Below, piece by piece: positions 5,601 to 63,777 of a DNA stretch of 64,000 nt (position 1 is its first letter; each line of letters opens with the position of its first letter). Origin of the DNA: Octopus vulgaris. Taxonomy: Eukaryota. A program made the position numbers and the translations under genes. Below the pieces are notes generated by a model that was not told where the DNA came from, did not search any database, and saw only the letters and a list, made by a program, of their open reading frames with translations. The stretch spans positions 71,300,001 to 71,364,000 of the forward strand of contig OX597815.1 of NCBI GenBank assembly GCA_951406725.2, in the 5' to 3' direction.

Positions 5601-5674
5601 GTGCATATATACATACATACATACATACATACATACATACAAAATACATTTAGAAATCTTGAGATAAAACTGAA

Positions 5675-5891: not shown

Positions 5892-5892
5892 C

Positions 5893-5972
5893 TGTTGATG
5901 TTGTAGAAATTCCAGTGAAAGAACCCGGCTTTTTCTCTATTGGCAAGAAATCTTGAATTAAAACTGAATAAT
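5893..5972 (+). mobile_element. Short 3'-terminal stub of an R4/Dong-like LINE followed by (ACAT)n
   Basis: 5940-5972 matches the 3' end of the element at 27685-27717 in 30 of 33 nt. A further partial copy lies at 5652-5678. Confidence 0.6.
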
Positions 5973-6016
5973 TACATACATGCATACATACATACATACA
6001 TACATACATACATACA

Positions 6017-6141: not shown

Positions 6142-6622
6142 TAGTATATATATCTTTATATATATAAAACTGAGAATGTGTGTCTGTCTGTCTGTCTGTG
6201 TGTTTCCCTAAAACTTGAGAACTACACAACCAATTTCATTCAAATTTTACACATGCCTTACTTAGGGTCCATGGGCAAAAAAAATGTTCAACTTCTTGCC
6301 TAGAGCGAGCCCATAGCAATATCATATCTTCTCCACTATTTCAGTATTACGTGTTAAAAGTGAAACAAAAATATTTCTCTATTTTATGTCAGATGCTTTC
6401 ACTTTAACAATAAAAATAATAATAACAATTGAATTATATGTAGTAAGTAATAATTAAAATCAAACTAAAGTATAATATAATCGTAACATACAAAAGTAAA
6501 AATAGCAATTGGTATAAAATTGCATCAATGATTTGAACTTGAATAAGTGGTTTCACTTGAATGGGAATAAATCAAAAATAAAATTAGCGTGCAGAAATGG
6601 AATAGTCCTACAATTCCAGTCT

Positions 6623-8515
6623 TCATTGACTTGGTTAGTTAATTTTTGTGTGAACTGTTAAATTGGAAAAAAAGTTGAATCGCGAGAGGCGCTTGCCGCC
6701 ACGTGTTGGAACCTTATTATAGAAGGTGCGTCGACCCTCAAGTCATGGAGACTTACGCGGGGGGCGCCGCAACGAAAAGTGATGAGCCTCTTATAGTAAG
6801 AGAAGTGTTTTTTAGAAAAGAACAATTATTGGACTATGAAAAATTCATCAAAGGGAGGGTGACAGCGTAAAGCTGGTCCCACCTGCTGAAACGATAGAAG
6901 ACAAAAATAATAAGACTATAACGTACAGGACGCAAGACAGGATTACATAAAAATTGGTGAGAGTAACGATAGAAGAAATTGAGAAATGTCTGGGGGACAT
7001 TATGAAAAAGGCAACGTACGTGAACAGAGGAAAGAAATATGGTACGGTGGAGGTGAGATGCGCAACAAAAGAAGTTGCGGCCTCGTTAGCTTCCACGGTA
7101 CTAAAAGCTGAAAACTTCATCATGTGGCCTACATATAAAGGAAAAAGAGGGGTACGGGTAAAGATCCCAAAGGTGCCGCCAGAAATAAAAACAGAAATGT
7201 TGGTAACAGCTATTCTAGGGTCAGCGAAGGAGGAAATAGAAATAGGGTCGATCAAGGAGACCAATGTTGTGAACTGGAAGGGATTCGGAGTGGAGATGTG
7301 GCTGATGGCCACAATAGAAGACATAGAAAGGTTTCCCTTCCAAATTGAACTAGAAAATGAGAGAACAATGGCCGTAATTGTGGAGGGGAGAAAGCCGAAC
7401 TGCTACTTGTGTGGGTCAAGAGGACACATAAGAAAGGAATGTCAGCTATATGAATTCACAGCGGAGAAGGAAATGGAGCGAAAAAAGACACAAAGTGGAG
7501 AGACAACGGAAGAAAACAAAAAAGAGAATGAAAAAAAACACGAAGGAAAGAACAGCGAAAGCAAGGAAAAGGAAATAACGGTGAAACAACAAGAGAAAGG
7601 AAGTAACAACACACTGAAGGAAAATGAAATCAAAGGGAAGAAATTAATAGAAAAGGAACAAAATTCACAGGGCAAAGAAGTAATAGAGAAAGAACCAAAA
7701 CAGAATCAAGAGAAAGAAAAGGAAAGTACACTAAAGGAAAGAGAAAAAAACAGGGAATAAACAAGAGAAGGAACAGAAGCAAGAGAAAGGAAAAGATGGC
7801 ACACGAAAAGAAAAAGAAACAACAGGAAAGGAACATAAGGCACAGGGTAGAGAAACGACAGACAAAGAGCCAAAAAGACAAGAGAAGGAAAAAGAAAGAA
7901 GAGAAAACAAAAAGAGAGAAAGAGAGAAACCGAGAGAGGAGAGCAAAGAGGAAATAAGTCCTAAGAGGAAGACTAGAGAGAACAGGCGATACAAATTCTA
8001 TGGAACGTTGGTCTATCACAGGCATTATGAGGAGATGGAAAATGTGATAAACGAAACAGATGGATATACATGGGTCAGGACGGGCACCGAATGGAAAGAA
8101 ACGGGTGCACTAGTTCACGAGGACGGCGCCGATGCATTACTAGGCAGCCGGTAAGAACGTGTTAAAACACATGAAATGCCGACTTGTAAGGTGGCCAAGA
8201 ACAATGGAGAACTATGAAGAATTGGTCGAGGTAATGGAAAATATTTTTTTGAAAACTTTATTGGTGAAAAGAATTTTAAATTCTACAAAATGTTGAAGTG
8301 ATAATACACTCTGAAAATTTTTTTGAAATATATGTAAAATGATTTTGAATTTTATTGTGAAATGTGTCTTTGAGAAAAAAATGACGAAATGTAACCACTC
8401 GATTTCGGGGATCGAGTGGGCATTACACCACATTGTACAAATTCCATAACTCATTATTTTATTTTTTCCCGATTGTATTGTCCCCTCTATGTTTCCCCTT
8501 GTGGGTAGGAATAAA
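6623..8515 (+). mobile_element. ORF1(gag)-only non-LTR retroelement related to the adjacent Tx1-type LINE
   Basis: Flanked by the 13-bp direct repeat ACAATTCCAGTCT (6610-6622, 8516-8528). Its ORF1 is homologous to the neighbour's ORF1, no EN/RT is present, and the last ~45 nt are nearly identical to 13571-13617. Confidence 0.8.
6745..8153 (+). pseudogene. Disrupted ORF1/gag-like protein with one CCHC zinc knuckle and a long E/K-rich tract
   Basis: Probable start METYAG at 6745, then a frameshift and a stop. ORF 6954-7760 contains TYVNRGKKYGTVEVR and CYLCGSRGHIRKEC. The 3' end is approximate. Confidence 0.75.
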
Positions 8516-8760
8516 ACAATTCCAGTCTGTTATATATTGTAAGTTGTTCTATTTCCACTGTTATATTGAAGTACTGTTGATTTTGTCTATATTGTCTGTT
8601 TTTGTGCAATAATTATTATCAGCCTTCGCGCGAGGGCTTCGTGTTAGAGTTCCCCCCCTCCGTGGGGGGAAAATTACTGTTTATTTGCACATACATTTGA
8701 GGCTTGCGAAGCCGAAACAATTTTGTTGTATTGAAAGGCTTGTTAAGCCAGTCTTCGGAG

Positions 8761-10023
8761 ATGGACTCCGATATCTCCAGTTCACCAGTGACAAGTGACG
8801 AGAGTTCACCGGCGGTGTCGCCGAGAAAAGAAGAAACCCCAGCGCCAGCTAGGAAGTTTTCCGAAGTGGCCGGGAAAAAAAAAAAATAAATACAGAGAAC
8901 CTGGAAAAATACGCAGACTGTTTTAAAAAGGAGGGCACAGAAGTAACGGTGTTTACGAATGTCCAAAAACAAGAAGAAATTGAAAAGAAAAGAATCATAT
9001 ACAAAACGTTCAATATTACAAGCAAGTCTATTCAAAGAATAGAGGAAAAAGAGATCGAAAATTGCCTAAAGCCGATATGGAATAAGATTACTTACATTAA
9101 TCGCGGGAAAAAATACGGTACAGTGGAAGTGAGATTTGCAACGGAAGAAATAGCCAAAAAGCTATCTACGGAACCTATGAAAGCAGAGAATATTGTTCTC
9201 CTCCCTCTGTATAGAGGCAAAAGAACCTCAAGAATAACAATCAACAATATTCCCCCAGAAGCGGACGCCACATGTCTGGTGGCAGCAGTTATGGCAGGCC
9301 TGGAGGACAAAATAAACATCCTCCAGGCTACAGTAGAAGAGGAGGAAAGCTGGAAAGGGCAGCGTATCTCAATGGTCATTCAGGCAGAGGTACAAACCCT
9401 CGAAGAAATACCAGAGACACTGAAAATCAGTGAGGAGGAAAGAGTCGTGGTCTTCGTGGAGGGCAGAAAGCCGAGGTGCTTCGGCTGCGGTAAGAAAGGG
9501 CATGTGAGGGCAGAGTGCCAACCCAAACCGCAGGAAGCAGCTCAACCAGAAAAAAAAAATGGAAGAAGTGTCACCAGAAACAACGCCAGACAGCCCAGAA
9601 GGGACAACTGAAGGTGAGGAGGTGACAGATGCAACAGAATCAGCGGCGGAGGTAACAGAAGAAGCAAAAAGCGAGGGGTGGTCAAAAATCACTAGGAAAA
9701 AAAGAAAAACTGAAACCACCCCTCCGAAAGTGAGCCAAAAGAAAAAAAAAGAAACATTGAACTCATTTATGGCCATTAAGGCCTCAAATAATAGACTCAT
9801 TAATGTGTTGGCAGCTATGGCCAAAGTAGAAAAAAATTTTTTTTTAATGATTTCATACTGTACAGAATAGGCCGGAGGGATTACGGACGGATGAAGTCCG
9901 AATTTTTTCATGACGTGGGCCCTCTCAGAATCGACATATATATACGAAGGCCTGCGTCAGACTCCCCCACGAGTCCGGGAAAAAGACAAAAATGAAGAAG
10001 AAAAAGTCGAACCACTGATATAA
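8761..10023 (+). pseudogene. Tx1-type ORF1 (CCHC zinc knuckle), frameshifted
   Basis: ORF pieces 8704-8889, 8949-9611 (TYINRGKKYGTVEVRF; CFGCGKKGHVRAEC) and 9559-9870. Breaks fall at A runs. Confidence 0.8.
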
Positions 10024-10031
10024 GGTAAGTC

Positions 10032-13000
10032 ATGGATTACATTTATGTTGGTTGTTTAAATGTGCGCGGCCTGGGATCAAACTGGAAGCAAGGTCGCTTC
10101 CTTAATGATATCAGGTCGCATAATTTGGATGTTATTGTTGCTACAGAAACCCGGTTAGAGGGGCCAAGAGGTCTACTCCCGCTGTTTGGCGGCTACGAGA
10201 GTTTTTTTCTCTCCGGCCAGTCCTACCGGCGGGGGTGGGGTGTTGGTCCTATAAAAAAGAAACCGGGTTTTTGAGAAAAAGTTAATTTTTTCACACCCAG
10301 AAGGTAGGCTGGTCGTCATGGATTTGACGTTCAGTAACGGTAAAGTTATCAGACTGGTTGCAATTTACGCACCCAACCAAAAAGGGCAAAGTGATTATTT
10401 TCGAGAACTGGATAACTTTCTTGGTACTTCGCATTCATTAGTTGTGCTAGGAGACTTTAACACAATTTGCAAAGCGGTTGTAGATTGTGTTGGCTTGCGT
10501 CCAGATAGAAAAGGTAACATTGGCTTCCTGGAACTGCTAAGCCGCTTTGAGCTAGCAGATCCTTATAGGTTGGAATTTCCGAACGCTCCATTGTGGACAT
10601 GGTCAAGCAGCGACGGATCTTCCAGGTCATACATAGATAGGATACTAATTAGAAAAGTAGACAGAAAAATAGCTAAGTGTCCACAGTTTTACCTGGTCAG
10701 CTACAGTGATCATAAAATGGTCACCTGTAAGCTTGACATAGATATGGTTAAAAATAGAGGCTCCGGTTATTGGAAACTTAATACGTCCCTTTTGGCGATT
10801 AAGGAGTACAGAGACCGGATTAGGACTATAATTCAGAGGGCGCTATCTGGTGCCATCATTAATAACAAATGGTGGTATGCCCTCAAGTGAGCCATCAAAT
10901 TCGATTCTATTAGATATAGCATAGGATTAGTGGCTAGAGAGGCTGGGAGGGAATCTACTCTAGTTAAGGAATTAGAGGAAGCCTTGAAAACTGGCTCTGC
11001 GGCTCAGGTGACGGCCAAGAGACTGGCGTTAAACCAGCACCTCGAGGCCAAACACATGGGCTGCATTGTCAGGGCTAGGATCCGAGCAATGGATTGTGAA
11101 GGAATCAACGCCGTGAGATGGGCTCGAGTGGTGGAAGCTCAGCGTGGTAACGACGTCACAATTCGATCTATGACGAACCAACGAGGTGAGTTGATAAACG
11201 AGCCCGAGGAGATGTGTGAGGCTTTTCAGGAGCACTTCGCTCAGCTTTTCGGTGGAGGCGGCGGACTGGATAAGAGGAGGGCCTTTACGGACCTCCTCGA
11301 CAGGCTGCCGCACCTATCGGGGTGAGATGCGGAGGGCTGTGAAGGGCCAATCACGCCTGGGGAGGTGGTTGAGGCGATGGCGGACTGCGGCGCGGGCAAG
11401 GCGCCGGGTTTAGATGGTCTACCCTATGAGTTATATAAGAGTATGCCAGACTTGTTCGGGCACCTACTGGCGGTGGTCTATGCGAACTGGCAGCAGAACG
11501 GGTTCATACCCAGATCTGTGCGCCGGGGAGTGGTGACACTCGTCAGATAGGACCCGAGCAAGGGGGAGTGCATTGATAATTTCAGGCCCATCACTCTGCT
11601 AAACACAAAGTTGAAGATTTTGGCCAAAGTGTTATCGAAAAAATTGGCGCGTGTCGCGGATGGTCTGATCGGGGAGGCACAGACATGTGCCGTTCCCGGC
11701 AGAACCATTCAGGATAATCTCCATCTTATGCGGTACACTATAGAGGGGTTTAATAGTGATTCTGGCAAGGGTGGGGCACTGGTCCATTTAGACCAATCTA
11801 AAGCATTCGATAGGGTCGACCATCGCTACCTGGTGTCTGCCCTGGCACAGTTCGGACTGGGCCTTGGCTTCCTCAGGTGGATTATCCAAATTAACATTGA
11901 CTCGGTAGTTCGGGTAAACGGCTTCTTGTCGAAGCCGTTCAACATCAAGCGCTCGGTTCGTCAAGGGTGTCCGCTTTTGAGCCATTACTGCGAAAACTGA
12001 GCGGCATCCCGAGACAGCCAGGTTGTGGAAAATCGGTGTCAGCGTACGCGGATGACATCACCATCATCGTAACCGAAATGGATCACCTACAGAGGGTAGG
12101 CAAGGCCATAGAGGTTTACGAGACGGTGACAGGAGCAAAGGTTAATCATGAAAAGTCAGTCGGCTTGCAACTCGGCACCTGGAGAGGCAAGTCGATGCCT
12201 CCTAACAGCGTCGTGGGACGTTGGACGGAGGGTCCGATTAAGTTGCTAGGGGTTTGGTTCGGTCCAGACCTCCAAATAGAGAAGAATTGGGGCGAGGTAA
12301 CGAGCAGGATGGCTGCAGTAGCCAAGATCAGGTCTTGGCGGTGGCTATCCCTGAAAGGGAGGGCGGAGGTAGCCAATGTGTTTATCGCATCGGTTATCAC
12401 CTACCGCCTTTCCGTCGTTCCTTGCCCTGATTCGTGGTTGAACAAGTTGGAAAGACAGCTCTTCTACTTCTTGTGGAAGGGCGGGAAACCACTTGTGAAA
12501 CGCTCTACTTGCTGTCAACAACCGTTAAAGGGTGGGCTAGAGATGCCTTGGCTGATGATGCGCAGACATGCGCTGAGGTTAAGACATCTGTGGCTCTACC
12601 TGGATGGTGAACGGGTGTGGTCTCCGCTAGCAAAACTGATGTTTCCCAAGTTCACTAGTTTCGGTGGATGGGAAACCTGGCTGAATCGTAGATCGAAACT
12701 GGGCACATGGTACACGGAGTGTCGCAAGGCTCTCCTGCTTTTCCGTCGCTCGGGCAACGCCTGCGGTGGGGGTTCCACCACATTCTTCTATAGAGGGTTG
12801 GTAGAGGTTGAATGTGAAGATACCTTGGGGGAAACCCTAGGTCTCGACGATAATCAGCTGGCCAGTCTGTTCCGACGTACGTTCGAGCCGAAGACCCTGG
12901 ACAACTTCCAGAAGTCTCTGGCGTGGCAATGTTACAGAGGAGCTCTAGCTGTTCGGGATAAACTCGCAAGGCACGGTGGCCAAGACAGTCCGATATGTCC

Positions 13001-13376
13001 AAGATGCTAGCGGGATAGGGAAACCGTCCCGTACGCTATTGTTCATTGTTCGGTCGTGTCCGAGGTGTGGGTTTATGCCGAACAGCTGTTGTCAAGCACA
13101 CAAAGAGTACAGCTGTCGACTGAGTCTATTATAAAAATTGACCCACCAGATTTCCTCGCGAAAGAAGGTAAGAATTGTTTTCTCGTTGTAGTAGCAATTG
13201 CGAAAGAGGTGATTTGGAAGACTAGAATGAAAGGTTTACGGTCAGGCAAGTTCATCTCCGGCCCTGGATTGATGAATTACTTCATATTTCACCTAAAAAG
13301 GAAGATAGGGCTGGAGAGAAAATGCCTGACTAAGAGAACGATGGAAGGATGTAGCACGAAAGTTGCGAGTGGATGA
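10032..13376 (+). pseudogene. Tx1/L1 ORF2: APE endonuclease and reverse transcriptase, with several stops and frameshifts
   Basis: Motifs LNVRGL, TETR, GDFN, IDRI, SDH, YWKLNTSLL, KAPGLDG, LDQSKAFDRVDH, SVRQGCPL, AYADDIT and CPRC*..HC. In-frame stops at 10888, 11323, 11548 and 13008. Confidence 0.92.
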
Positions 13377-15044
13377 TACCACATAAATGTAAAACTAGAT
13401 GAAACCAAAGTATCAGTGGGGAGGCGGGGCTCGTGGGGTCCGAGCTAAACCCGCTCCCACTCCATCCGTAATGTCTTCCGGTCTGTTCTCCATTCGATTT
13501 ATATTTGTATTTTATTGAATTTTTAAACTCATCTTTGTGTAACCCCATTCGTGTATCTGACCCCACATCAGATTGTATTGTCCCCTCTATGTTCGCCCCT
13601 TGTGGGTAATAATAAAACCATTCCAGTCTGTTATATATTTTGAGTATTGTTATCACTAGCGATATCAAGATATAACTTTGTATTTTGCATTTTATGTGTA
13701 GATGTATATATATAGATGTACATGTAATATGTACACATATATATACACATATATACATGCACTAGCACTATGACCCGGCAACGACGGGTCTTTAATGCTA
13801 GTAATATATATAGTATTTATGTATCTCATGAATGCAATGTTAAAAAGCTTGAAAGAAATATATACGTAGTGAGAATTAAAAAGAAAGAGAACAATAATAT
13901 TAATCAACTCAGTCTTCTACTTATTTCGGTTGTCTCTACAGGACATAACCTAAATAATGTTTTGTTCTGAACGCAACGAAACATAATTCTTAGTGCATTT
14001 AGTGAATTAATGATAAATAAATCACTAAATAATTATATAAGAATATGTGTAGATATTATACATGCATTATTAACACATGTCTGTTAGCTGAAACATGAAA
14101 TGCATTCGCTGTGGAATTTTGTCACAGAGAAAAATTTTGACCCTCGCTTCTTTGTGTACTTGCACTAAGTTAATTCCATCTTGGAATGCCTGAACACACT
14201 CCAACAAAAATGTATTGCTTGCAGAGTTCTAATTATTAAGTTCCAGTTGAGCTCGATCTGACCGATGTAGTATCTGTAACTGTGGAGGGAAAATCACACC
14301 GAAACACAATGTCTGGTAGTCCGCTGACATTATTTGAAGCACGACTTGATGTGTTTTTGACTCCATGTCTATAGAGATTTACACGTTCTAGTATATCACA
14401 GTGTGTTAACAAAATAAATGTGCACATCTTTATGTTGATTCTCATCATTTCGAGTGCTTATACTAAAAGGAGCTTGTAGAAAAATAAACTCTATGGAAAT
14501 AATATAATTCAGAGACGCCATCTGTATGAAGAGATGATAGTTATCAGTGTTAACATGGATCATTAACATTTTAAAATATCTCCTCTAAAATGTTCATTCT
14601 TCTTATATATCTTGTGTTTTTTCTCTCCTGCCTTCTAATTTATTTCTAATAAACGGCTCAATACATTAGATTTGAGAACACTAACTTATAACCATGATAA
14701 CTAATCTATATCTCGTACCGTTATACTAACCTTTAGGAACCATCGCTTATTCTTAAAACTATTAATGTCTTTCGGATACGTTAAATCCTTAAAATGCCTC
14801 GACAGTTTGCTAACAATAACCGATCTTCTGATACACAACTGTGAATCAATTTTTGTTATTGTTGTTTTATTTCATTTTCACCTTATTTAATTTTTTCCAT
14901 ATCTATTTTCCTTTTTGTTTATATTTATTTTTTGCATTTTGTAATGTATATCTGTTGCCTTCGCTAAATGTTCATCAATCCACTTTCGCACTATGCACGC
15001 AGGTGAAGAATCTCCACGCGATACACACACACGCACACACACAT

Positions 15045-20240: not shown

Positions 20241-20580
20241 TTTTCCTCAAAGCGGTATCACGGTAATAACAAAGCTGATGATAGCTTAGTTTTTCTTGGA
20301 CTAATTTTAACTCTTGCTAAAGAAATCTTGTGATAGCATTCGCACTCCCCTTTTTGCTCATCTTGCTAGTGCACCCAGTTCTCGTTTTTGCATTAGTTGT
20401 AACTAAAAAGGACTTCTTCCTCGTAGCAATCCCACAAATAACTAAGACGATGATGACAGTTTACCGTTGTTTTTTTTGGCTATTTTTTTTTCTTGGATAG
20501 CATTTGTATTCTATACATCTCCACTTTTGGCTCATCTCGGTAGCCCATTCAGTTATCATTTTAATATTAGTTGTACCTAA

Positions 20581-21225
20581 ATGCAATGAACTGACAGAAT
20601 CGTTAGCATGCCGAGCGAAATACTTAGCGGTATTTCGCCCGTCGCTACTTTCTGAGTTCAAATTGCGCCGAGGTCGACTTTGCCTTTCATCTTTTCGGGG
20701 TCAATTAAATAAGTACCAGTTACGCACTGGGGTCGATATAATCGACTTAATCCGTTTGTCTGTCCTTGTTTGTCCTCTTTGTGTTTAGCCCCTTGTGGGT
20801 AGTAAAGAAATAGGTATTTCGTCTGCCGCTACATTCTGAGTTCAAATTCCGCCGAGGTCGACTTGGCCTTTCATCCTTTCGGGGTCGATTAAATAAGTAC
20901 CAGGTACGCACTGGAGTCGAAATAATCGACTTAATCCGTTTTGTCTGTCCTTGTTTATTCTCTCTGTGTTTAGCCCCTTGTGGGTAGTAAAGAAATAGGT
21001 ATTTCGTCCATCATCACGTTCTGAGTTCAAATTCCGCTGAGGTCGTCTTTACTTTTCATTCTTTTGAGATCGATTAAAATAAGTACCAGATGAGTACTGG
21101 AGCCGTTGTAATCAACTTTCCCCTTCCCCCAAGTTGCTGCCTTTGTGCCAAAATTTGAAACCAATATTAGTTGTACTTGAAGGCGGCGAGCCGGCAGAAT
21201 CGTTAGCAAGCCAGGCGAAATGCTT
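20581..21225 (+). mobile_element. SINE family C trimer (~185-bp unit) followed by another head
   Basis: TTCTGAGTTCAAATT..GAGGTCG recurs at ~20650, ~20834 and ~21019. Flanking repeat AATATTAGTTGTAC at 20563-20576 and 21163-21176. Confidence 0.85.
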
Positions 21226-22344
21226 AATTGATTAACCGAATGACCAATCAATTCATTATTTAGATGGTTATATTTAGTTGGTCAACTAGTTATAAAAATA
21301 ACAAAGAAGTGAAATAGGACTAGTGCATGTGTTTATCATTGGCATCATTTAATGACCCTCCCGAGATACAACAAACCTGTCACATTTTTCTAACACAAAA
21401 TTTCGTTTTACACACGCAAGAATAACCATTATTCATTAAAAAAAAAAAAAAAAACTGGCGGAATCTATTGAACGCAGATGAAAAATTCTAAAATATTCAA
21501 ATACTATCTCACTACATAGATAATCTACATCTCAAAGTGCTCTACTCTCAGAATCAGCCATTAATAATTAAATTCAGAAGAAAGCTATAATGCTATAAAG
21601 TTATTTTTATATATTTGTATATTATCACTTTGAAAATTTAATTTTTTTCTAGTTCACTTAGCTGCACAAAAGAAATATACTCATTATATCTACAAAATAT
21701 TGCTAATATCATTATAGCTAACTTCTGAATTTAATTATTAATGCTTGATTCTGAAGGTAGAGCTCTTTCAAGTGTATATTTTGTCATAATAGAGCAAGTA
21801 TTGTAGTTTACTCGAATTTTCTATTTGTCTCGGAAATTCTAGAATTTCAAAAATGTTCTGGCAACGCCACCGTATACAAAAACTAATAGCGCTCTTATAA
21901 TTCTTGTTCTTACCATCTGCTGACGAAGGTAAGTGGTGTACGTTTGCGCGCGCATGTGTGTGTGTGGCCTACGCAGTATAAATGGAAACGCTTAAAGTTT
22001 AAACATTACTCTATAGACTGGAAAAAATTAACCTTATTCGATTTGGGGATTTTATCAGAGGTGTCTATATCGTTTTTACCAATACCGGGGATATTAGCAA
22101 CCAATCTGTTTCTATACTTATCAAATCCATTAGCTATTAATTTGCACACCATAAGTGTTTAACATTTTATTTGATATCAGCGGTTTGTTAACGGAAATCT
22201 CAGTACACAGTGCCAAGGTATGAAATATTATATGTAACCGACGTAGTATAAATACAAACACTGCAAAAATAACCATGTGTGTATGTGTGTGTGTATATAC
22301 ATGTGTGTATGTGTGTGTGCTGTGATTTATTGTATATATCTAAC

Positions 22345-25300: not shown

Positions 25301-25500
25301 CTTCCTGTCAGGTGTCCCAGATGAACCAACTTCACGGCAGGAGGGGCAGATGAGGGCAGCTGCATCGAACTCTCTCATGCACCAAATAGCAGTTGCTAGA
25401 AAGCCTCCATGAAGTGAAACCAAGTAGCAACACCAAATGGCGGTGCCCCAGCATGGCCACAGCTCATAAGCTGAAACTAGAATCAATCAATCAATCAATC
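22345..25500 (+). mobile_element. CR1-group (CR1/L2-like) LINE, probably 5'-truncated, with an (AATC)5 tail
   Basis: EN-RT ORF, short 3' UTR with a stem-loop, and tandem AATC tail at 25481-25500. Confidence 0.9.
22415..25412 (+). pseudogene. APE endonuclease-reverse transcriptase (ORF2), ~1000 codons with one frameshift
   Basis: LNIRGL, TETHL, YRPP, GDFN, TLDL and SDHN in ORF 22277-23206; GPDG, YRPISL, QHGFR, LDFAKAFDKV, GVPQGTVLGP, YADD and LERRRER in ORF 23157-25412. The shift lies between 23127 and 23206. Confidence 0.92.
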
Positions 25501-25792: not shown

Positions 25793-25849
<57 letters not shown>

Positions 25850-25980
25850 CATACATACATACATACATACATAGATGTATGCATACATATATACATACAT
25901 ACATACATACATACATACATACATACATACATGCATACATACATACATACATACTTACTTACATGCGTACATAAATACAT

Positions 25981-27717
25981 AGCTGTAGTGTCTAAAGTAA
26001 ATAAACAGCGTAGAAACCTTGTGACAGTATGGCTTGACTATAAGAAGGCATTCGACTCTATCCTTCATTCCTGGCTGTTAAAGTACCTACATCTGGCAAA
26101 AGTACTTACCACCCTAATTGCTGTTATAGAGAGACTCACAAAGACATGGACAACAATTCACACCCTTCCAACTGAGAACAGAATAATTGTTTCATATACT
26201 ATAGGCATTTCAAAGAGAATATTCCAGGGAGATAGTATTTTGTACTTCTTTTCATTTTGGCACTGAATCAACTATGGTTCCAAATGCAGAAAACAAATGG
26301 CTACAAACTACGATCTTCAACTGCTAGAAATGTCAATATAACACATAATTTCTTTGTAGATGATCTCAAGATTTATTCTAAAAGTGTTAACAATGCCAAA
26401 AAAACAACTGGAATTAGCAAGATTTTCAGCTGATACAGGCATGGAAATTAGCCAAAAGAAATGTTCAGATTTGGATATAGAACGAGGAAAGTCAGTCCTC
26501 CAAACCCAAAACCTGTGCATCAACGGGCTCTCTATCTGCCCCATTCCACACAAAGAATATTACAAGTACCTAGGCATAGATGAAAATTTATCATATGGAG
26601 GCACTGTGAATAAAGATAGCATGACCCGAGAATATTACACCAGACTTAGGAAAATATGCCAATCGGAACTCTCCTTTTACAACAAAACAATATCCCACAA
26701 TGCATTTGCAGTACCAGTGCTGATCCCAACATTTGGGATACTTAATTGGTCTGTAGAGGAAATCCACTCTATAGATATCAAAAGCCGCAAAATCCTGACA
26801 ACAACTGGGAACTTTCACAGAAGCAGTGATGTTGTCAAGCTTTACCTGAGAAGAAATGAAGGTGGTAGAGGCCTGAGATCAGTGCAGACGGCCTTCGAAT
26901 GCTGTATGGTATCACTCAGGCAGCACCTGCTGAACAATAGCAGCAGAAATAAATATATAAATGCAGTGCTGAAAAGTGAGCAACATTGTACAAGCTGGCA
27001 GCGAGCTCCTCAAGAAGCACTCTCTTCTTGGGGCTATTACATCAGAGAAGACCTGGATGGAAAGCCTCAGCATACAAAAATAAAAACTATGCATGGGTAT
27101 GTTACCCGAAAGCTTGAAGAAGACAGTAGAATTGACACGAAGCGTAGCCTCTCTCGGACACAAGACCTCTACATCACATCACACTTTGAATGTTTTGCGT
27201 TTGCAGTCAAAGAACAGGAGATAGCCACAAAGTACCTGGTGAATAAGAGAGACAGTGACGCTCTTGTAATCTCAAGGTACAACCGCGTGTGTAAGCTATG
27301 TCATATTCCAGTGGAAGACATCATGCATGTGATTAGCAGCTGTCCTAAAATGTCGTGGTACTACCTCCCTGTGCTGTACGATGTTGTTGCTAAAACAATT
27401 TACAATGTCATCCGCAAAAAAACCTACTCTGAAATAAACTTAGAAATTCCCTCTGTTATGAACACCAACTCAAAAAATACTGGTGGAATATTCCCATCAA
27501 AGCTTCTGTCAAATGTAAACATAGCAGGCCGGATATGGTTGTTTGGAAAAGAGGGGCAAAGGTATGTATCGTCATAGAGGTCAGCTGCCCTACAGATATA
27601 AATATCTGTTTGAAAATCTAAGAAAAAGAGGATATATATGGACAACTGCTTCGAAACCTCTAGCTTCTGGATCCAGACTATGAATTGGCAAGGAATCTTG
27701 AAATAAAATTGAATAAT
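25981..27717 (+). mobile_element. 5'-truncated, decayed R4/Dong-clade LINE (RT, zinc motif, restriction-like endonuclease)
   Basis: WLDYKKAFDSI, IFQGDS, FVDDLKIY, YKYLG, LYLRRNEGGRGL, CKLC..H....C and RPDMVVW..IEVSCP. Flanked on both sides by (TACA)n. Confidence 0.85.
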
Positions 27718-27785
27718 GACATACATACATACATACATACATACATACATACATACGTACGTACATACATACGTACATACATACG

Positions 27786-28858: not shown

Positions 28859-29466
28859 CGCAGGAGTGGCTGAGTGGTAAGTAGCTTGTTTACCAACGAC
28901 ATGACTCCGGGTTCAATCCCACTGCGTGGCACATTGGGTAAGTGTCTTCTATTATAGCCTCGAGCCGACCAAAGCCTTGTGAATGGATTTGGCAGACGGA
29001 AACTGGAAGAAGCCCGTCGTGTGTGTGTTTGTAAGTCTGTGTTTTTCCCCCTAGCATTGCTTGACAACTGATGCTGGTGTGTTTATGTCCCCGTTACTTA
29101 GCGGTTCGGCAAAAGAAACCGATGGAATAAGTACTGGGCTTACAAAAGAATAAGTCCCGGGGTCGAGTTGCTCGATTAAATGACTGAAACAAGTAAAGAG
29201 TAAAAGAGTAAGAGATACATATATATAAACTGAAAAAAGCCCGTCGAATGTATGTGTGTATGTATTTGTGTGTCTGTGTTTGTCCCTCCCACCATCATTT
29301 GACAACCGATGTTGGTGTGTTTACATCCCCGTAACTTAACGGTTCGGCAAAACAGACCGATAAAATAAGTAATAATTTTACAAAGAATAAGTCCGGGGGT
29401 CGATTTGGTCGACTAAAGGCGGTGCTCCAGCATGGCTGCAGTTAAATGACCGAAACAAGGAAGAGA
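28857..29466 (+). mobile_element. SINE family B plus a tandem partial second copy
   Basis: Head at 28857 and first copy to ~29212; the second copy (29228-29466) lacks the tRNA head. Confidence 0.85.
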
Positions 29467-29712
29467 AAATTAGAAAAATAGACGCCAAAAGACGCTATTA
29501 CCACCTTAAAATTTTTTATATAGTTATGGTATATTCTGTAAAGAACGTAGTAGAGTACAGTATAAAGCTCGTCCACCTTCAGATTTCACTGCGCTATCCA
29601 ATAGTGGTATCATACATACTTCCAGGTTTACGTCTGGGCATGTGTCGCGTGTGAATAGATAATTGGAAAAATTTGGAGTCAACAAGGAGTAAGGTTGGAC
29701 ATTTATTTCTTA

Positions 29713-44867: not shown

Positions 44868-47471
44868 TGTTAGAAAAGATTATATCATCGTCGAAGAGAA
44901 AGAATGGAACTGTTCATTCCTAAAATACTCTATTAATAATCAACCTCATTTTTTTTCTCTCTGAAGATGGAATAGTCCGCTACTATATGGATAGCTTTTA
45001 TATCCTTCTATACGTTGGATATACAGATTTCATGAAGCGATAGACAAAACTGTCTTAATACGACGTACTTCAAATTACTCCACTAAACACGATACTCCAA
45101 TAAATACAAACTCTCAACGATTTCAAAGACTTCCTACGACTTCCTCAAACTCTCAACGACTCCTACGACTTCCCTCGTTTCAACCAATACGTTACTCTTT
45201 ATGAGAGTTCTGCTAGCCCAGCCTTCCAATTCCACGAGGCAGTCAATAACTCTCGCCACAACATCTCCCCCTTTGAGATTTACTTCCTAGGGAAGTTTAA
45301 TATTTCTTCCGTTTAGGCACTACTTCCAACCGTTCTGCTTGTGTCCTCTTTCTTGTGCTGCTACGCCTAGGTTCGACTTCTTGTGGTGTTGGAACACCAA
45401 AGGTGTCGTAGAGCCTTCATGTTACCATCTTTATATTTATGTAGCATTACTGCTCCTACACCGTACTAAGAAGCGTCTGAAGCTACAACAATCTCCGCTG
45501 CAGGATCGAAGTGAGCTAGCGACAAATCAGATAGCAATATTTTTTTTAATTTCGTCAAACGCCTTTTGGCAATTGTCTGACCAATTCCATTTCATCTTTT
45601 TCAGTAAATTATTCAATGGAGCCCTAACCTTATGCATCTTTAGGATATAACTTTGGTAATAATTTGGCAGTCCTAAAAATGCTTGTATGGTCGCTATATT
45701 AGTCGAAGGAGGCATATTTTTAATTGCGTCTGCCTTCGACGGGTCAGGACGTCGTCCATTCCTGTCAATGACATCCTAAATATCTTATTTTCGGTAAGAA
45801 AATTCACACTTTTCTTCATTAATGGTAAAGCCATAACCCTAATTTCTTCCAAATAAATATTTTACCTGCTCAACGTGTTGATCCTTAGATTCGCTTTTAA
45901 TGAGTATATCATCCAGATATGGAATAGCGAATTCGCAGTCAGCTAATATTGCAACCATAATCTGTTGGAAAATTGCTGGTGCGACCTTTAAACCAAATGG
46001 TAACCTGTTGTATTTATAGTCCTTTATGTGTGTTCACTGTTAGGTATTTCGAGAATTCATCGTCTACTGTAATTTGTAGGTACGCGTCAGGGAGATCCAA
46101 TTTAATAAATATCTTTCCACCGTTTAATTTCGCAAAAATATCCTCCGGAGTAGGTAGCGGATAGTGGGATGTTGTAAGACAATCGTTTAAACCAGTGGAA
46201 AAGCCAGCGCACACTCTGATTTTATTATTCTTTTTCTTAATATTCACAGTTGGTGCAGCCCATTTAGAATATTCCACTTTTTGGATAACTCCTATTTTTT
46301 CTAGTCTCTCTAGTTCTTCATTGACTTGTTTCATCGCTGTGAAGGGTACCATTCGTTTTGGTTTAAATACTAGTATGGCGTTTTCTTTTGTTTGGAAACA
46401 CGCCTTTGTCTTGATACACAGACCTATTTCATCGGACAGAACTTCAGGAAAAATATTTTCTATTTTTTCTTTCAATTCGTCTGACGACTTGTTTTTACTG
46501 GAGGAAAAGCCATTTATATTTTTACAGAACAGATTTATGGGGTGGTCCCATAAATCAAGCAATTCCATCCAGTCTGTACCGAACAAGTTTGTTGCATTAT
46601 TTAACACAAAACTTTCAAGTTTTACCCTTAAATGTAACCTCAGTTATCATTTCGCCCCAAAAATGTTTTTTTTTTTTTCTGCGACACTATTCACAATTTC
46701 TAAAGTTTCCATTTATTTAGGCTTTCCAAATTTTTTCTAAGTGTCAATGATAATAATTGTAATATCACTTCCTGTATCTAGCTGTAACTTCACGTTCAAA
46801 TTATTAATCTTTATGTACACAAATTTTCTTTTGTGAGCCTTGCCTAAACTTTCTGTTGAGAAAACCTTTCCAGAATTTTTTTCCGTTCAACCTTTTTTTT
46901 TCTGCAATGAGATCTTTTATGTCCGATTATGGATTGAGTATTGATCTTCGTTTTTCTTTTTCCTTATCCGTTACAAGTCGACACGCATGTATCTGTGAGT
47001 AATACTTTTCTTCAATTTTATTAATTCTATGACATTCTTCTGCCACTGCCTGCTGAGTCAAATTCTAGTCCTGTTCTAATTTTGTCAATATCCGGGTACG
47101 TATCTCTGCATCCTTGCTTGCAGTTAACCCTTGAACAAAAATTAGACATTTGAACATGTCCGGGGTTAATTTTTTTAGTTAGACTTTTTCGCATTCTCGA
47201 TTGACGACTCCGGCATACGTGACGGAATTTCCATCATCTTTTTTACTAAATTCAAACATTCCCAGCGAGTATTGAACAGGGAACTTCTCTCACTGAAAAT
47301 CTTCGGTAACAATTTAATTGCTTTAATAAATACAAACTCTCAACGACTTTCTCCGACCTCCACGAACTCTCAACGACTACTATGACTTCAGCCAATACGC
47401 TACTCTCTATAAAAGTTCGGCTAGTTCATTCTTCCAATCCCATAGAGGTGTCAATGACTCTCGCCACAACA
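44868..47471 (-). mobile_element. Internally deleted Ty3/Gypsy LTR retrotransposon with two diverged LTRs
   Basis: LTR homology between 45099-45263 and 47325-47471 (both end CTCTCGCCACAACA). PPT (TCTCCCCCTTTGA on +) at 45264-45276. Gag FNTRWECL..FKCLIFVQGL, protease LDTGSD, RT YLDD and RNase H start SDAS*YGVGAV, after which most of RNase H and integrase is deleted. The left boundary is approximate. Confidence 0.9.
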
Positions 47472-50392: not shown

Positions 50393-50496
50393 CCATCGTT
50401 ACCAAAACTGCGTAACTGCCAAGCAAGCTACTGAACCATACAGCCATGCATGCACCTACACTGTAATGTTTTTGTTAACAGATATACGCATAACAA

Positions 50497-50729
50497 TAGG
50501 GTGGCGAGCTGGCAGAAACGTTAGCGCGCCGGGCGAAATGCGTAGCCGTATTTCGTCTGCCGTTACGTTCTGAGTTCAAATTCCGCCGAGGTCGACTTTG
50601 CCTTTCATCCTTTCGTGGTCGATAAATAAAGTACCAGTTTCGCACTGGGGTCGATATAATCGACTTAATCCGTTTGTCTGTCCTTGTTTGTCCCTTCTAT
50701 GTTTAGCCCCTTGTGGGTAGAAAAGAAAT
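50497..50729 (+). mobile_element. SINE family C monomer with a Tx1-like tail and a perfect 17-bp TSD
   Basis: AGATATACGCATAACAA at 50480-50496 and 50730-50746. Confidence 0.92.
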
Positions 50730-51156
50730 AGATATACGCATAACAAGAGGAATTGAATCCAGTCGGGTTTCATGGAATGTCCTTACTAAATATTGCTGAA
50801 CTTGAACGCATTCACTCTACAGCGATATGATTTGGTTGTTATCCAACCAAAAACATTATTTACTATTATTCACTTTAGATATTTTCTTCGGTCACTGCTA
50901 TTTCTGGATAGTTTAACGCAATGTTGCCGGTTATCTCTTGTTAAGCTGTCATCATCAGCTGATACGTTTTCAATGGTTTATGGTTATCATCAAAGAAGTA
51001 TAGAAGTTACCTTGTGATCGCTTGTTTCTTCCACATACGAAGCAGTCTTGGTTGAAATCGAGAAGCTTGTTATTCTTCATTGAAATTCGATATTTTTAAT
51101 CTAAATCTTTTTAAAGATTTCAGTGCTGTTAAGAGATCGGCTACTAATGTTCTACG

Positions 51157-52215: not shown

Positions 52216-53087
52216 GAATATCCCAGTGATTAATGCGGTAAGGCTGAGGCTGCCAGCCAGTGCTTGAGCTATTATATGCCTCGGTCGTGCAGGAACAAAA
52301 GTGTGGCATGCTGGCGCGTTGTAAGGGACAAACAACTTTCTCTATGTATGCGTGACCGACCTAGGGTCTTACAGAGATGAGTTGTGTTTACAAGGGCACA
52401 TTGAGCATGGAAAACAAGCGAGAAAGGCATGTGTGGCGTATGAATGTGACAGAGATAGCATTTGTGTGTGTATTAACTATGTGTGTTCGTGTGTGCGACA
52501 GAAGTACAAACAAGGTGTATGCGGGCAAAACAAAATACAGCGGATAGGAAAAGTCTCTCAGGGTATTTCAGACAAGATGGAGTTAATTTACCAGTTCGTA
52601 GTAAAGTACATAATAGCAGTTCGTTCTGTAACAGGATGTTCGGATCACAAGTGCAGATTCCGGTTGAACACATGTCGTGTAGTGGTTGTGGATTCAATGT
52701 TGTGCCAGGTTACATTGGTACAGAAGATCTCGCAGGTAGTGCTGTGCTGTTAACCTCGGTGAAAATCATAACAGCGTGAAAGCTAAACCTGAATGAGTGC
52801 TATGTACATATTAGTTTTGCTGGCGATGAAGGCGACGGAGATGGAGATGACGTGTAGGTGAAGGACGACGATGGTGATGGCGATGGCAGAGAAAGGCGAC
52901 GTTGAGATGAAGGCGTCGGTGGCATTGCTGGTGTATGTTAGCGTCGTCATTGGCTGGAGCAGGAACATGACTGGCTGGTCTGGTCGTCTGTCGCTGGAAC
53001 TGGAACATGGTTGAGTAAGCTCTGTGTGGATGAAGACTGCGGCGGATTGATTGGTTCAGACTAGGTAGAAACTAGATTTTAGCTAAG

Positions 53088-53549
53088 TGTTCTATGGTCT
53101 ATGACCAGAACTCGGGAAACTTGCTTGAATGTTCTATGGTCTATGACCAGAACTCGGGAAACTTGCTTGACTGTTCTATGGTCTATGACCAGAACTCGGG
53201 AAACTTGCTTGACTGTTCTATGGTCTATGACCAGAACTCGGGAAACTTGGTTGAGTGTTCTATGGTCTATGACCAGAACTCGGGAAACTTGCTTCAGTGT
53301 TCTATGGTCTATGACCAGAACTCGGGAAACTTGCTTGACTGTTCTATGGTCTATGACCAGAACTCGGGAAACTTGGTTGAGTGTTCTATGGTCTATGACC
53401 AGAACTCGGGAAACTTGGTTGAGTGTTCTATGGTCTATGACCAGAGCACGGGAAACTTGGTTGAGTGTTCTATGGTCTATGACCAGAGCTCGGGAAACTT
53501 GGTTGAGTGTTCTATGGTCTATGACCAGAACTCGGGAAACTTGGTTGAG
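53088..53549. repeat. Minisatellite, 11 x 42 bp
   Basis: Unit TGTTCTATGGTCTATGACCAGAACTCGGGAAACTTG(C/G)TTGA(A/C/G); it appears as a 14-aa repeat in two open frames. Confidence 0.97.
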
Positions 53550-54238
53550 TCTTCATCTTATAAAATGTGGCCCCAGTAGACCCGAATGAAATCGGGTTAT
53601 ATTAACCAAAATGTGAAAAGGGGTCTAAATGGGGCTGGAAGGGGATTAAAATTTAAAGGAGCGGGTGTTTAGCAATTCTCTGTTACATCAAGCTAAAAAA
53701 TTTGCGCCAGCCTTTTAATCGTCAATGTGTTGCCGTCCATGATGAAGAAGTTTTGAATGCTTGCCATCGTGAGTCTACTGTCGTGAGAAAGAATCAATTC
53801 AAAACTTGGTGTTTAGGGATTTTCTTTTACATCAAGTTCAAAATTTTACGCCAGCCGTTGAACTGTCAATTCGTTGCTGTCCGTCGTTAAGAAATGCCAG
53901 CCATGGTGACTCTACTATCCTCAAATTCTATCCCTTCAAACTTTGGTTTCCAATATTTTATTATTTTTATTCAGCTCGCAAATTCGTCTGTCCCTTTTAA
54001 ATGTTAGTGTTTTGCTGTCTGCCTTGAAGCAGACCTTTCCGTTGTTACTGCCTGATATTTATGATTGATCTTTCTAAATATTTTATTTCTCAACTTACTC
54101 AAGATCTTTTGTTGTTTATAAATGGGAGAGAGATAGATAAAGATAGAGAGTAAGAGAAAGCGAGGGAGAGTCCGAGAGAAAGGAAGAGTAAGAGAGTGGG
54201 AAAAGTGAGAGAGAAAGGAGAGAGAAACAAAGAGGGAG

Positions 54239-54669: not shown

Positions 54670-54756
54670 CACTTCAATTGAAATAAAGTTTCCCCAAAAT
54701 TAAACATATCTAGTATAATAAATGTGAATGTGTCACACTGTTTTAACTTTATTAAA

Positions 54757-55131
54757 TCCTTTCTACTGGATGCACGAGACCTCAAATTTGAGGGGAGGGA
54801 TTAAGTCGATTACATCGACCCCAGTACATAACTGATATTAATTTTATCGGCCCTGAAAGGATGAAAGTCGACCTCGGTGGAATTTGAACTCAAAAACCAA
54901 ACATCAGACGAAATACCTATTTCTTTACTACCTAAACACAGAGAGGACAAACAAGGACAGATAAACGGATTAAGTTGATTATATCGACCCCAGTGCGTAA
55001 CTGGTACTTATTTAATCTACCCCGAAAGGCAAAGTCTACCTCGGCGGAATTTGAACTCAGAACGTAACGGCAGACGAAATACGGCTACGCATTTCGCCCG
55101 GCGTGCTAACGTTTCTGCCAGCTCGCCGCCT
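54757..55131 (-). mobile_element. SINE family C dimer
   Basis: Same unit junction (GTAGTAAAGAAATAGGTATTTCGTC) as the trimer at 20581. Confidence 0.85.
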
Positions 55132-60736: not shown

Positions 60737-62819
60737 GCAAGCACACATGCACGCGCGTACAGCTGTATACGCATACATATAGAAAGAGTGAGAGAGGGAA
60801 AGGAAGAGGAGAACATTACAATTTATCAATTGAACACAGGTGACATAAACACTTTCCTTCTTAGAGAAATATGTTCATATACAAAAGCAGAGAGAAAATA
60901 GACACGAGGGAGGAATTGAGAAAACGAGAGAAAAATTAAATCGTTTGACGTAAGATAAGTCAGCGCTGAAACAGCATCGCCACATAAGCAGTGCCAAAAT
61001 GGCTGTGCCAGAACGCCTCGTATTCTCTAGCCTTGAATATATTTGAGAGGATGTTATTTCCAGCAACTATGATGCCTTGCCAGAATAATGGTTTCTTTTT
61101 TTCGCACAGTGTCAGCAATTTTTGAAGGGAAGGGTGGGTCGATACCATTTATTTCAGTATTTGGCTGTACTTTATTGTATCGACCCTAAAGTGATAAAAG
61201 GCGGAGTTGACTCTGGCCGGATTTCAACTCAAAAGGTCGAAAGAAATAGTGGAAAGAAATAGTGGGAGACATTTTGTCCGACGCTCAAACGATTTTAATC
61301 GCTCGCCTTTCCAAAATTATGATTCCTAATATAGGCACAAGACCTTCAACAATGTTTCTGATTTAGTCACAAGGCTAGCGCTTTTGAGGGGAAGGGTTAG
61401 TTGAAAGAATTGACTTGACTGGTACTTTATTTAATCGATTTAGTAAGAATGGAAGATAAAGTTCACTTCGGAGGGATTTCAACACAGAATGTAAAGCCGG
61501 AAGAAATACCGGAAACCATTTTGTTCTGCCAGATCGCCTTGATAATGCTTCTATTGTATGTTGGTGTGAATAATTTCCTTATCATCAAAGTGATTTCATT
61601 CCGTGAGCATTGAATCTGAAAATATTGCTTGATGTATTTTTATTTTATATTTGCATGTTGGTCATTTTATACTTGTATGTTACCATTTTCTCACTCATCA
61701 AATCGCTCTACGGCATTTTCCCTCAATTATTAAATCAATATGTACGGTGAAATATTGACACTTTATTTAAAATCTATATCTTTTCATCTTTTTAATCAGG
61801 AAGGAAGGGCAATGCCCATGATCCTTTACAGGGCATTTGAGACTGGTATGACGGAGGACGGTATCCTCAAACCAGAGATCTGGTTCAAATGCTTATAACA
61901 GAATGGACTCTGCTTAAGGCTCCCTAGGTGCCAAGCTGTTTCGGAAATATATAAAGGTTACTTACGAAACTTTCCCTTTTCGCATAGTAAAACCCCTCCG
62001 TCTCCATTATTTAAACTTACATATTCTTTCGTTTATAAATCAGTTCGAAGTGGCAGAGTGATTAGCACACCGGGCAAAACTCTTAGCGACATTTATTACT
62101 TCTGATTACGTTCTGAGTTCAAATTTGACCGAAAGCGATTTTTATCTTTTCGGGGTCTAAAAAATGTGTACTAGTTGAGCACTGGGGTCGATGTAATCGA
62201 CTCATCCTCATCCCACCGAAGTTGCTGGCATCATGCCAAAATTTGAAACCATTTAAATCATATTCAGTTATCAGTTTATAATTGAAAACCAATCTAACTA
62301 TTATGAAGACCGCTAAGATTTCCTCGTTGTATTGTCTATAACAAAGAATTCAGAAAGTTCAAGGCACATCCACATCAAGCTTAAAAACATTCTTCCACAG
62401 CGCAGGCATGACTATGTAGTTAAGAAGCTCGCTTTGCAGCCATGTTGTTTTGGGTTCAGTACCACTGCACAAGTATCTTCTATTTACACTTTGAGTCAGT
62501 GAATTTGTGAGTGAATTTGGCAGACGGAAACTGAGGAAGTCCGTCGAGTATGTGCGCGTATATATATGTATGTGTGTGTGCATGTGCGTGTATGTATGTG
62601 TGTGTGTTTGTACTGTCGTCATCGCTTGACAACCGGTGTTGGTTTGTTTACGTCTCTATAACTTAGTATACAAAAAAATTAAATAAAATAAAAATAAGTA
62701 CTGGGAGGTTTAGTCGGACAAATCAGCCCCAGTTTACTCAGCAACTCTAAATATCTTTTAACTCAGCTTATCTAGCTATGCCGTGTAGCACTATGTTCTC
62801 TTTTGTGAGAAGTTATTCT

Positions 62820-63042
62820 CTTTTTACTCTTTACTCTTTTACTTGTTTCAGTCATGTGACTGTGGCCAAACTGGGGCACCGCTTTTAGTCGAGCAAATCC
62901 ACCCCAGGACTTATTCTTTGTAAGCCTAGTACTTATTCTATCGGTATCTTTTGCCGAGCAGCTAAGTTACGGGGACGTAAACACTCCAGTATCGGTTGTC
63001 AAACGATGTTGGGGGGAAAAACACAGACACACAAACATATAC

Positions 63043-63075
<33 letters not shown>

Positions 63076-63246
63076 CATATACACGACGGGCTTCTTTCAG
63101 TTTCTGTCTACCAAATCCACTCACAAGGCTTTGGTCGACCCGAGGCTATAGTAGAAGACACTTGCCCAAGGTGCCACGCAGTGAGACTGAACTCGGAACC
63201 ATGTGGTTCGTAAGCAAGCTACTTACCACACAGCCACTCCTACGCC
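62820..63246 (-). mobile_element. SINE family B, full length (a decayed plus-strand copy lies at ~62400-62700)
   Basis: Reverse complement of 5219-5600. Confidence 0.9.
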
Positions 63247-63777
63247 TTGTTGTTAATTTTCATTTTTATTCACCTAAAGAAAACGGTTTTTTTGTGGGGG
63301 GTTTTTTGTGTTTTTTTTGCTTTTGAATGATGTAACACTTTTGTTCATCAATAAAGAACGCATCTGAAACAGTGCAGTGAACTGCAACCCATTTGTGTTA
63401 CCTATCCTTCACCTAACTCGGAACCTTCCATACGTTTGGACCTGGAGTCGACTGTAGAATACGTGCAGTGAGTGTGTGAGTGTATCCATGAGTGACTTTG
63501 ATAATGCGTTGTGTATTCAGTCAGTAACTGTAGATGTATGCATAACTGGAAAAAACAAATCTGTATTTACTTTAGTAAGTATGTATACGTGTATGTCAGT
63601 ACACATTGTTGGTACACTGGTGCGCTGTCCCCGACTCTACTTTGGTGCTTTTACTATTTACTATTTAAGTGCCTGATTCTTTCGGATTCTGAAAATGTTT
63701 CATATATATATATGTACATATATATACATACATATACATACATATATACATACATACATATATACATACATACATAC

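Follow-up and report, generated by a model that had tools for sequence, protein, structure and literature searches.

A stretch of 64,000 nucleotides (nt) of Octopus vulgaris DNA (GenBank assembly GCA_951406725.2, contig OX597815.1, positions 71,300,001 to 71,364,000, forward strand), referred to here as the window and numbered from its first letter, carries a full-length short interspersed nuclear element (SINE) of a family designated C, together with a long interspersed nuclear element (LINE) of the L1 group and an element that keeps a first open reading frame (ORF1) with no second one left. In an earlier note, made from the letters alone, it had been proposed that the SINE ends in the 3' terminus of the LINE, there called Tx1-type, and that the three elements form one system relying on sequence-specific 3' recognition.

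The tail shared by the SINE, the LINE and the ORF1-only element

The SINE starts at about 50500, a small correction to 50497, and is about 232 nt long, non-coding, interspersed and flanked by an exact target-site duplication (TSD), features by which a short element is recognized as a SINE. The perfect 17-bp repeat reported earlier is confirmed, with no extension of the match, and shortens to 15 bp if the final AG is assigned to the SINE, as other C tails suggest. The head looks to be of RNA polymerase III (pol III) type, with an A-box-like motif at 50510 (4 candidates at no more than 2 mismatches) and a B-box-like motif at 50574 (a single site, 1 mismatch), each matching its consensus pattern with mismatches. 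No tRNA gene was detected in it by ARAGORN (0 genes) and nothing by Rfam at E<=5, which is usual for diverged heads and speaks neither for nor against the tRNA origin suggested earlier; no TTTT run lies within the unit (50500-50731). The body, which on inspection by eye only shows no resemblance to the BivaMeta-SINE1 and BivaMD-SINE1 alignments (66-bp Meta domain of the MetaSINEs), is that of the sister families A and B as far as about 50668, from where the tail is specific to family C.

Local alignment of the SINE (50497-50729) gave 33 identical columns of 37 with the whole LINE (score 46) and 36 of 41 with the whole ORF1-only element (score 50), and the scores reached by dinucleotide-shuffled SINEs on both strands were at most 35 and 30, respectively, so that the real scores were met in none of 300 shuffles in either case. 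In end-anchored comparisons among three C tails, the LINE end and the ORF1-only end, 0 of 2000 shuffles sufficed in all 10 pairs. The pattern of the shared tail occurs at 5 sites within the window, every one an element end (chance mean 0.00); a sixth tail, the C tail of a copy at 55130, has lost its hairpin and stands outside these 5. Farther upstream, 50668-50683 matches LINE positions 13547-13562 at 12/16 (P about 0.005), which places the start of the LINE-like part approximately where family C departs from its sister families. The 3' end of the SINE is thus significantly similar, on the same strand, to the end of the LINE 3' untranslated region (UTR), as in stringent SINE-LINE pairs, and the match falls within the 35-61 bp at 72-95% identity that accepted pairs share (PMC11481361). 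Chance similarity, one of two ways in which the earlier note allowed that it could be wrong, is ruled out by the shuffles; the other, a SINE fragment inserted secondarily into the LINE ends, is excluded because in each of the three types of element the shared terminus directly abuts the TSD. The tails of families A and B match none of the LINE ends in the window.

An oligo(A) tract is absent after 6/6 tails (C SINEs, LINE and ORF1-only element), and the absence of a poly(A) tail claimed earlier therefore holds at the DNA level; given the terminal AATAAA of the LINE-type elements, polyadenylation may nevertheless occur in their RNA. The LINE 3' UTR holds a second hairpin, of 6 bp, just ahead of the shared core (13556-13574); its right arm is missing from the SINE. 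A short repeat family, abundant as judged partly from translations (2261-2746, 5206-5577, 29050-29470 and 62860-63326), is unrelated to the C tail apart from a weak 23-nt match at 29265-29287. Among prokaryotic genome contigs, the exact tail pattern found 0 matches and the reverse transcriptase (RT) alignment confirmed 0 of 34 pattern matches; the SINE had no match among plasmids.

The LINE ends at 13616, position 13617 being the first TSD base, and several stops and frameshifts in its reading frames indicate that this copy is dead. It has the composition of an L1-group element, with ORF1 and an ORF2 encoding an apurinic/apyrimidinic (AP) endonuclease and an L1-type RT: Pfam recognizes Exo_endo_phos and RVT_1 in ORF2 (and zf-RVT in its named relatives), and the best relatives of known structure for RT and endonuclease are human L1 ORF2p (E 5e-13 and 1e-6), with R2 at 2e-6 or worse. 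The best named relatives of the ORF2/RT piece are proteins of Argonauta hians (57-60% identity), in addition to a short match in Octopus bimaculoides; a protein annotated to a bacterial metagenome-assembled genome is 54% identical to ORF2 and probably reflects eukaryotic contamination of that assembly. Both ORF1s contain zf-CCHC (E 1e-4 and 0.03) and have CCHC proteins as protein-atlas neighbours, with no RRM detected in either, so that the Tx1 type of ORF1 (RRM/CCHC knuckle) is represented by the CCHC knuckle only. A CCHC-type ORF1 in non-mammalian animals has been described as 'consistent with the Tx1 clade' (PMC5203782), and Tx1 families often target other transposons, the choice being set by the endonuclease (PMC4494074). 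No Tx1-named match was found among 42 and 109 proteins similar to the LINE ORF2. 'Tx1-type' is accordingly a working label: ORF1 type and target preference fit Tx1, and the RT is placed by similarity only.

The ORF1-only element has ORF1, no ORF2, a LINE-type 3' end and its own TSD, as elements of the HAL1 (half-L1) type do. Its ORF1 is only 43% identical to that of the neighbouring LINE over 162 amino acids (aa), so that it is not a recent deletion product of that LINE. At the DNA level, similarity between the two is confined to a pair of short stretches in ORF1 and to the final 46 nt (91% identity), which, against the divergence of the ORF1s, means that the end has been either conserved or swapped in. 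The same nick was used twice, the target 13-mer being present at 6610, 8516 and 13617 with TSDs of 13 and 23 bp; target preference of the Tx1 kind is seen here as two different elements at one nick, at one locus only. Both insertions lie in a putative host (parts 6153-6609 and 13640-13801) set in a (TA)n run, whose ends resemble those of a Helitron. No second or empty copy of this host was found within the window, and Helitrons may be the target of the LINE-type family.

Table 1. Positions of the elements, target-site duplications (TSDs) and composite loci in the window
Feature	Position	Strand	Description
Left TSD/target of ORF1-only element	6610..6622	+	13 bp
ORF1-only (HAL1-like) element	6623..8515	+	Broken ORF1 with CCHC knuckle, no ORF2 left; shared tail and AATAAA end
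Shared target copy	8516..8538	+	Right TSD of ORF1-only element (13 bp) and left TSD of LINE (23 bp)
L1-group (Tx1-type) LINE	8539..13616	+	ORF1 (CCHC knuckle) and ORF2 (AP endonuclease, RT); shared tail and AATAAA end
Right TSD of LINE	13617..13639	+	23 bp, 1 mismatch to 8516..8538
Putative non-autonomous Helitron-like host of both LINE-type insertions	6153..13801	+	A/TC at 6153; hairpin 13772-13790; CTAG/T at 13798-13801
Left TSD of SINE	50480..50496	+	17 bp, exact match to 50730-50746
Family-C SINE, full-length	50500..50731	+	Pol III-type head, body common to families A/B, own tail
LINE-like SINE tail	50668..50731	+	Core 50684-50723; hairpin loop 50710-50714
Right TSD of SINE	50730..50746	+	First two bases possibly SINE end
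Composite locus	20579..21165	+	Old non-C head with C body/tail (to 20813); headless C unit 20814-20998; headless A-tailed remainder 20999-21165
Composite locus	54750..55130	-	C unit (55130-54917), head C-type, hairpin deleted; headless B-tailed remainder (54916-54750)

Tail hairpins and the insertion sites of family C

The CCC-CUUGU-GGG hairpin pointed out earlier in the shared tail can form with 3-4 bp and is invariant among C and LINE tails, which leaves the covariation check proposed for it empty there. Anchored on the loop, 15 tails (5 C or LINE-type, 10 others) form an ungapped alignment, in which the loop recurs in the A and B tails, equally far from the end and flanked by stems peculiar to each family; the majority stems are GCCC/GGGU (C and LINE), UGGC/GCCA (A, position 11 in only 2/5) and AGGY/GCCU (B). 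Across the A, B and C tails, 77% of stem cells pair versus 56% after shuffling (0/500) and 39-48% in slid controls, and stem covariation is 0.55 versus at most 0.25 for slid partners, values that have to be read with an anchor that contained the loop and the inner pair and with individual A and B copies that are decayed. The stems appear to differ between families with pairing kept, and because the tails form three related groups, these changes amount to two or three events. The 55130 copy, the tail-less units 43276 and 21179 and the second tail at 61341 were left out of the alignment, and at two loci with tied anchors the first was taken. Of 147 CTTGT sites in the window, 6 have a stem of at least 3 pairs including 2 G-C pairs, and all 6 are element tails. 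On the minus strand, 61310-61420 is occupied by a SINE with two successive tails, A-like and then B-like, each with a CTTGT loop.

A search of the window with the SINE returned 16 related units with a common head and body and at least three tails (A, B and C). Four units bear a C tail, and in three of these, at two loci (Table 1), the tail abuts, without any gap, position 51-52 of a SINE unit (SINE positions being counted from 50497), a site between the A and B boxes, with an identical 14-nt junction in 3/3. The final units of the composites have two different tails, A and B, and identity among the C bodies is 89-93%, as against 76-83% with the two terminal remainders. At the 20579 locus, the head is non-C at all four diagnostic positions (22, 46, 51 and 62; 34/48 identical to C), the unit is C-type at 5/5 positions from 66 on (66, 89, 145, 160 and 173), and the switch falls 11-15 nt past the nick, which is the size of a TSD. 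As read from its sequence, this anatomy fits what would be expected of a young C insertion into an older SINE, with a TSD of about 13 nt, joined in register. Since there are about 13 such SINE sites (a rough count) among 128,000 strand positions, two independent hits there are not chance, and with three of four C tails at a fixed SINE position, family C appears to have its own target, the sister SINEs. This target and the loop common to the A and B tails had both been missed by the earlier note.

The copy at 50500 appears to be an exception to this SINE-into-SINE targeting; a near-copy of the LINE target lies 27 nt downstream of its insertion, noticed after the fact and given no weight. TSD sizes are alike across the LINE-type elements and the SINE (13, 15-17 and 23 bp), with different targets and with one LINE copy only. 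A 14-bp repeat flanks the 20579 composite (20568-20625 and 21164-21226), and a SINE head follows on both sides, the right-hand one (near 21164-21226) stopping at position 48, two to three bases short of the preferred insertion site. At the inferred cut, positions 46 and 51 set both C-type heads (50542 and 50547, with their counterparts in the 55130 copy) apart from A/B heads; these changes, present in 2 copies only, may represent an escape from self-insertion.

Proposed mechanism and its alternatives

LINEs are copied by target-primed reverse transcription. It is proposed that family C, as a pol III-type octopod SINE carrying the last 40-60 nt of a Tx1-type (L1-group) LINE, would be copied by that lineage's ORF2 protein, with reverse transcription starting at the tail and not at poly(A). 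Judging from its conservation, the tail would act as the recognition signal; of the three-member system proposed earlier, the tail shared by all three and the nick shared by the LINE and the ORF1-only element are established, and sequence-specific recognition is likewise suggested by conservation. As the targets are unlike, the SINE-targeting partner is probably a sister family of the window's LINE, outside this window, whose endonuclease would prefer position 50-52 of the SINE head, with occasional off-target insertions such as the 50500 copy. A related LINE had been suggested earlier as the mover of that copy, and one with another target is indeed probable, but the 'relaxed specificity' also offered would fit the 50500 copy only, the other C copies having hit the SINE-internal site. 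After the nick, the upper strand of the target may pair with the matching internal SINE complementary DNA, yielding a headless, in-register insert, in which the A box of the host and the B box of the insert would make up a complete promoter, now C-tailed. Transcripts of C units, mostly devoid of TTTT, may then read through into target sequence. For R2, stronger targeting through such read-through sequence has been reported (cited in PMC4494074), and it is considered a general rule that SINE tails derive from LINEs and recruit LINE proteins (PMC3747384). The explanation as a whole, tail partnership plus SINE-into-SINE targeting, is assigned a probability of about 0.68, and a stringent tail partnership of Tx1 type, taken alone, is regarded as highly probable.

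Several points weigh against this explanation. It is drawn from a single window with 4 C tails, 3 junctions and 2 loci, the Tx1 membership of the LINE is putative, and donation of the tail from LINE to SINE is presumed. The tails fold no better than their shuffles (z -0.48 to +1.07, 8/8 folds), so that the hairpin, although it can form, has no excess stability, and the C copy at 55130 lacks it altogether. Simple insertion would not lead one to expect the fully C-type head of that copy (46/48), and the slight divergence of its outer repeats (about 40 bp) fits a read-through dimer; together with the deleted hairpin, these features call for either a replaced head or a read-through dimer. The LINE target and the SINE-internal site agree at 7-8 of 13 positions, which is at chance level (P 0.08-0.27); likewise, no resemblance beyond chance links the 50500 site to either of them (P 0.88 and 0.25). 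Derivation of the SINE-internal site from the LINE target by decay, or of the 50500 site from either, is accordingly unsupported.

The alternative that survives best accepts the tail partnership and takes the composites as read-through dimers, descended from one or two old C-into-A and C-into-B masters and spread by the partner LINE of family A or B, with ongoing targeting weak or absent. The 55130 composite, with its C-type head, deleted hairpin and outer repeats of about 40 bp with few substitutions, speaks for it, as does the absence of TTTT in two of three C units examined, which indicates that pol III can read through; dimeric SINEs are, moreover, known (PMC10702118). Even so, two host families must each have been hit at an identical base, which makes two insertions the minimum, and a one-piece dimer does not yield the 20579 locus, where two young C units stand behind an old, non-C head. 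It is therefore a possible account, but a rather doubtful one.

According to a second and less probable alternative, the tail is a relic of a LINE 3' end, and the present mover of family C is an L1-group enzyme of relaxed requirements, for which an A-rich end suffices. A-rich ends are indeed present (AATAAA; AAAGAAATAG), the hairpin is not unusually stable, one copy has none and the 50500 copy sits at an unrelated site. On the other hand, the end is conserved across otherwise unrelated 3' UTRs, no poly(A) tract occurs at 6/6 ends and stem pairing is kept across families, all of which make the relic account unlikely.

It could also be supposed that the transfer ran in reverse, with Tx1-type elements capturing a SINE end by template switch or 3' transduction and the hairpin being an old SINE feature recognized by another LINE, and the A and B tails, in which the loop and its spacing from the end recur with stems specific to each family, would allow the motif to be ancestral to the SINEs. 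Yet the two LINE-type families (43% ORF1 identity) are closer to each other (91% over 46 nt) than to the SINE and directly abut their TSDs, the part of the SINE peculiar to C is at the same time its LINE-like part, and the rule that SINE tails come from LINEs points the other way; reverse transfer is hence considered quite improbable. Least probable of all is a formation of the composites at the DNA level, by unequal recombination or tandem duplication between homologous SINEs, because in 3/3 cases an identical junction, with homology of no more than 1-2 nt, connects the C-tail end with an internal SINE position, the terminal units are much older and have different tails, and duplication could account only for the second C unit (20814), which at 91% identity to the first is no closer to it than unlinked C copies are.

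A bolder extension of the preferred explanation, tail partnership with targeting of sister SINEs, would treat family C as a homing SINE: a Tx1-type endonuclease would cut sister SINEs, the promoter would be rebuilt and A- and B-tailed loci would become C-tailed, with the CUUGU stem-loop, its stems compensated in a family-specific way in A, B, C and the LINEs, as a common recognition code and poly(A)-independent Tx1-type LINEs driving the whole octopus SINE group. This is put forward tentatively and is thought less likely to be right than wrong. Similarly speculative is the corollary that read-through target sequence from converted, transcribable loci might favour further targeting.

Neighbouring elements and known systems

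The rest of the window, with a GC content of 35-49%, is rich in microsatellites and retroelements. A second LINE at 22247-25500, which is presumably CR1-like, has long frames that look intact (endonuclease of 319 aa, RT of 761 aa) and short tandem repeats at its end. It is followed at 25847-27720 by a degraded RT element with a C-terminal zinc finger, whose 3' end resembles, by eye, 5640-5680 and 5935-5975 on either side of a SINE at 5725-5893, which suggests from the sequence that this SINE interrupted another short element. On the minus strand, the translation of 46014-46643 reads like a fragment of what we take to be a Ty3/Gypsy pol region, and 53076-53589 is a tandem array of units of about 42 bp, open in several frames.

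Octopus SINEs named OK, OR1 and OR2 were reportedly described as tRNA-derived by Ohshima and Okada in 1994, and the CORE SINEs are cited as including OR1 or OR2. It may well be that family C corresponds to one of these three, or to a family in Repbase or Dfam. SINEs make up 11.6% of an O. vulgaris assembly, and its recently active families are mostly unclassified (893/900; PMC13282606). Searches of the open-licence part of PubMed Central and bioRxiv, but not of Repbase, Dfam and SINEBase, brought up no octopus SINE described as having a Tx1 or L1 tail, and an earlier database annotation of this SINE/LINE pair is quite possible; no example of a SINE/LINE tail pair in an animal L1-group lineage was found in the same literature. 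The 'TX1' of PMC4176376 is a mutant label and not the element.

The mollusc SINE superfamilies resemble the present families in joining one head and body to several tails, and the partners reported for them are CR1, CR1-Zenon, L2 and Nimb, with none of L1 or Tx1 type and no site-specific SINE-into-SINE route to tail change in the available parts of those papers (PMC4824008; PMC11481361; PMC4758252). Tail exchange is attributed in the mollusc papers to template switching or recombination; if SINE-into-SINE targeting holds genome-wide, it would offer a concrete mechanism for it.

Among L1-tailed SINEs, the closest parallels are ZmSINE2 and ZmSINE3 with LINE1-1_ZM in maize and sorghum and SINEX-3_CR with L1-1_CR in Chlamydomonas, all of the stringent L1 type, in which an L1-clade LINE and a SINE have about 45-80 terminal nt and a stem-loop in common (PMC3472496; PMC3747384). 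The L1-tailed SINEs in the available text of these two papers come only from plants and an alga, and it was posed there as an open question whether a specific 3' RNA signal exists in the L1 group of non-mammalian animals. Family C differs from the plant and algal pairs in belonging to an animal and to a target-specific lineage, and in having no terminal poly(A). Like HAL1, which is non-autonomous, belongs to the L1 clade and retains ORF1 along with the LINE 3' end (PMC5786205), the element at 6623-8515 is a half-LINE; unlike HAL1, it has an ORF1 only 43% identical to that of the neighbouring LINE and a nick site in common with it. The 40-60 nt tail of a LINE, a half-LINE and a SINE offers a signal that is compact and open to direct test, in a lineage with specific targets and no poly(A).

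With respect to targeting, the nearest system is that of SINEU and Tx1-Mar in crocodilians, in which, as here, SINEs are tied to a target-preferring Tx1 lineage, insert into a transposon and form tandem insertions, and in which transcription helped by the flanking target has also been discussed (PMC4494074). SINEUs, however, have small nuclear RNA heads, and no LINE with the 3' terminus of SINEU-1 was found in that study, their link to Tx1-Mar consisting in shared targets, whereas in family C the link is a shared tail, the head is of pol III type and the target is a sister SINE. In the octopus, a known kind of SINE/LINE tail partnership thus occurs in an animal L1-group lineage, and two loci point to a targeting of sister SINEs.
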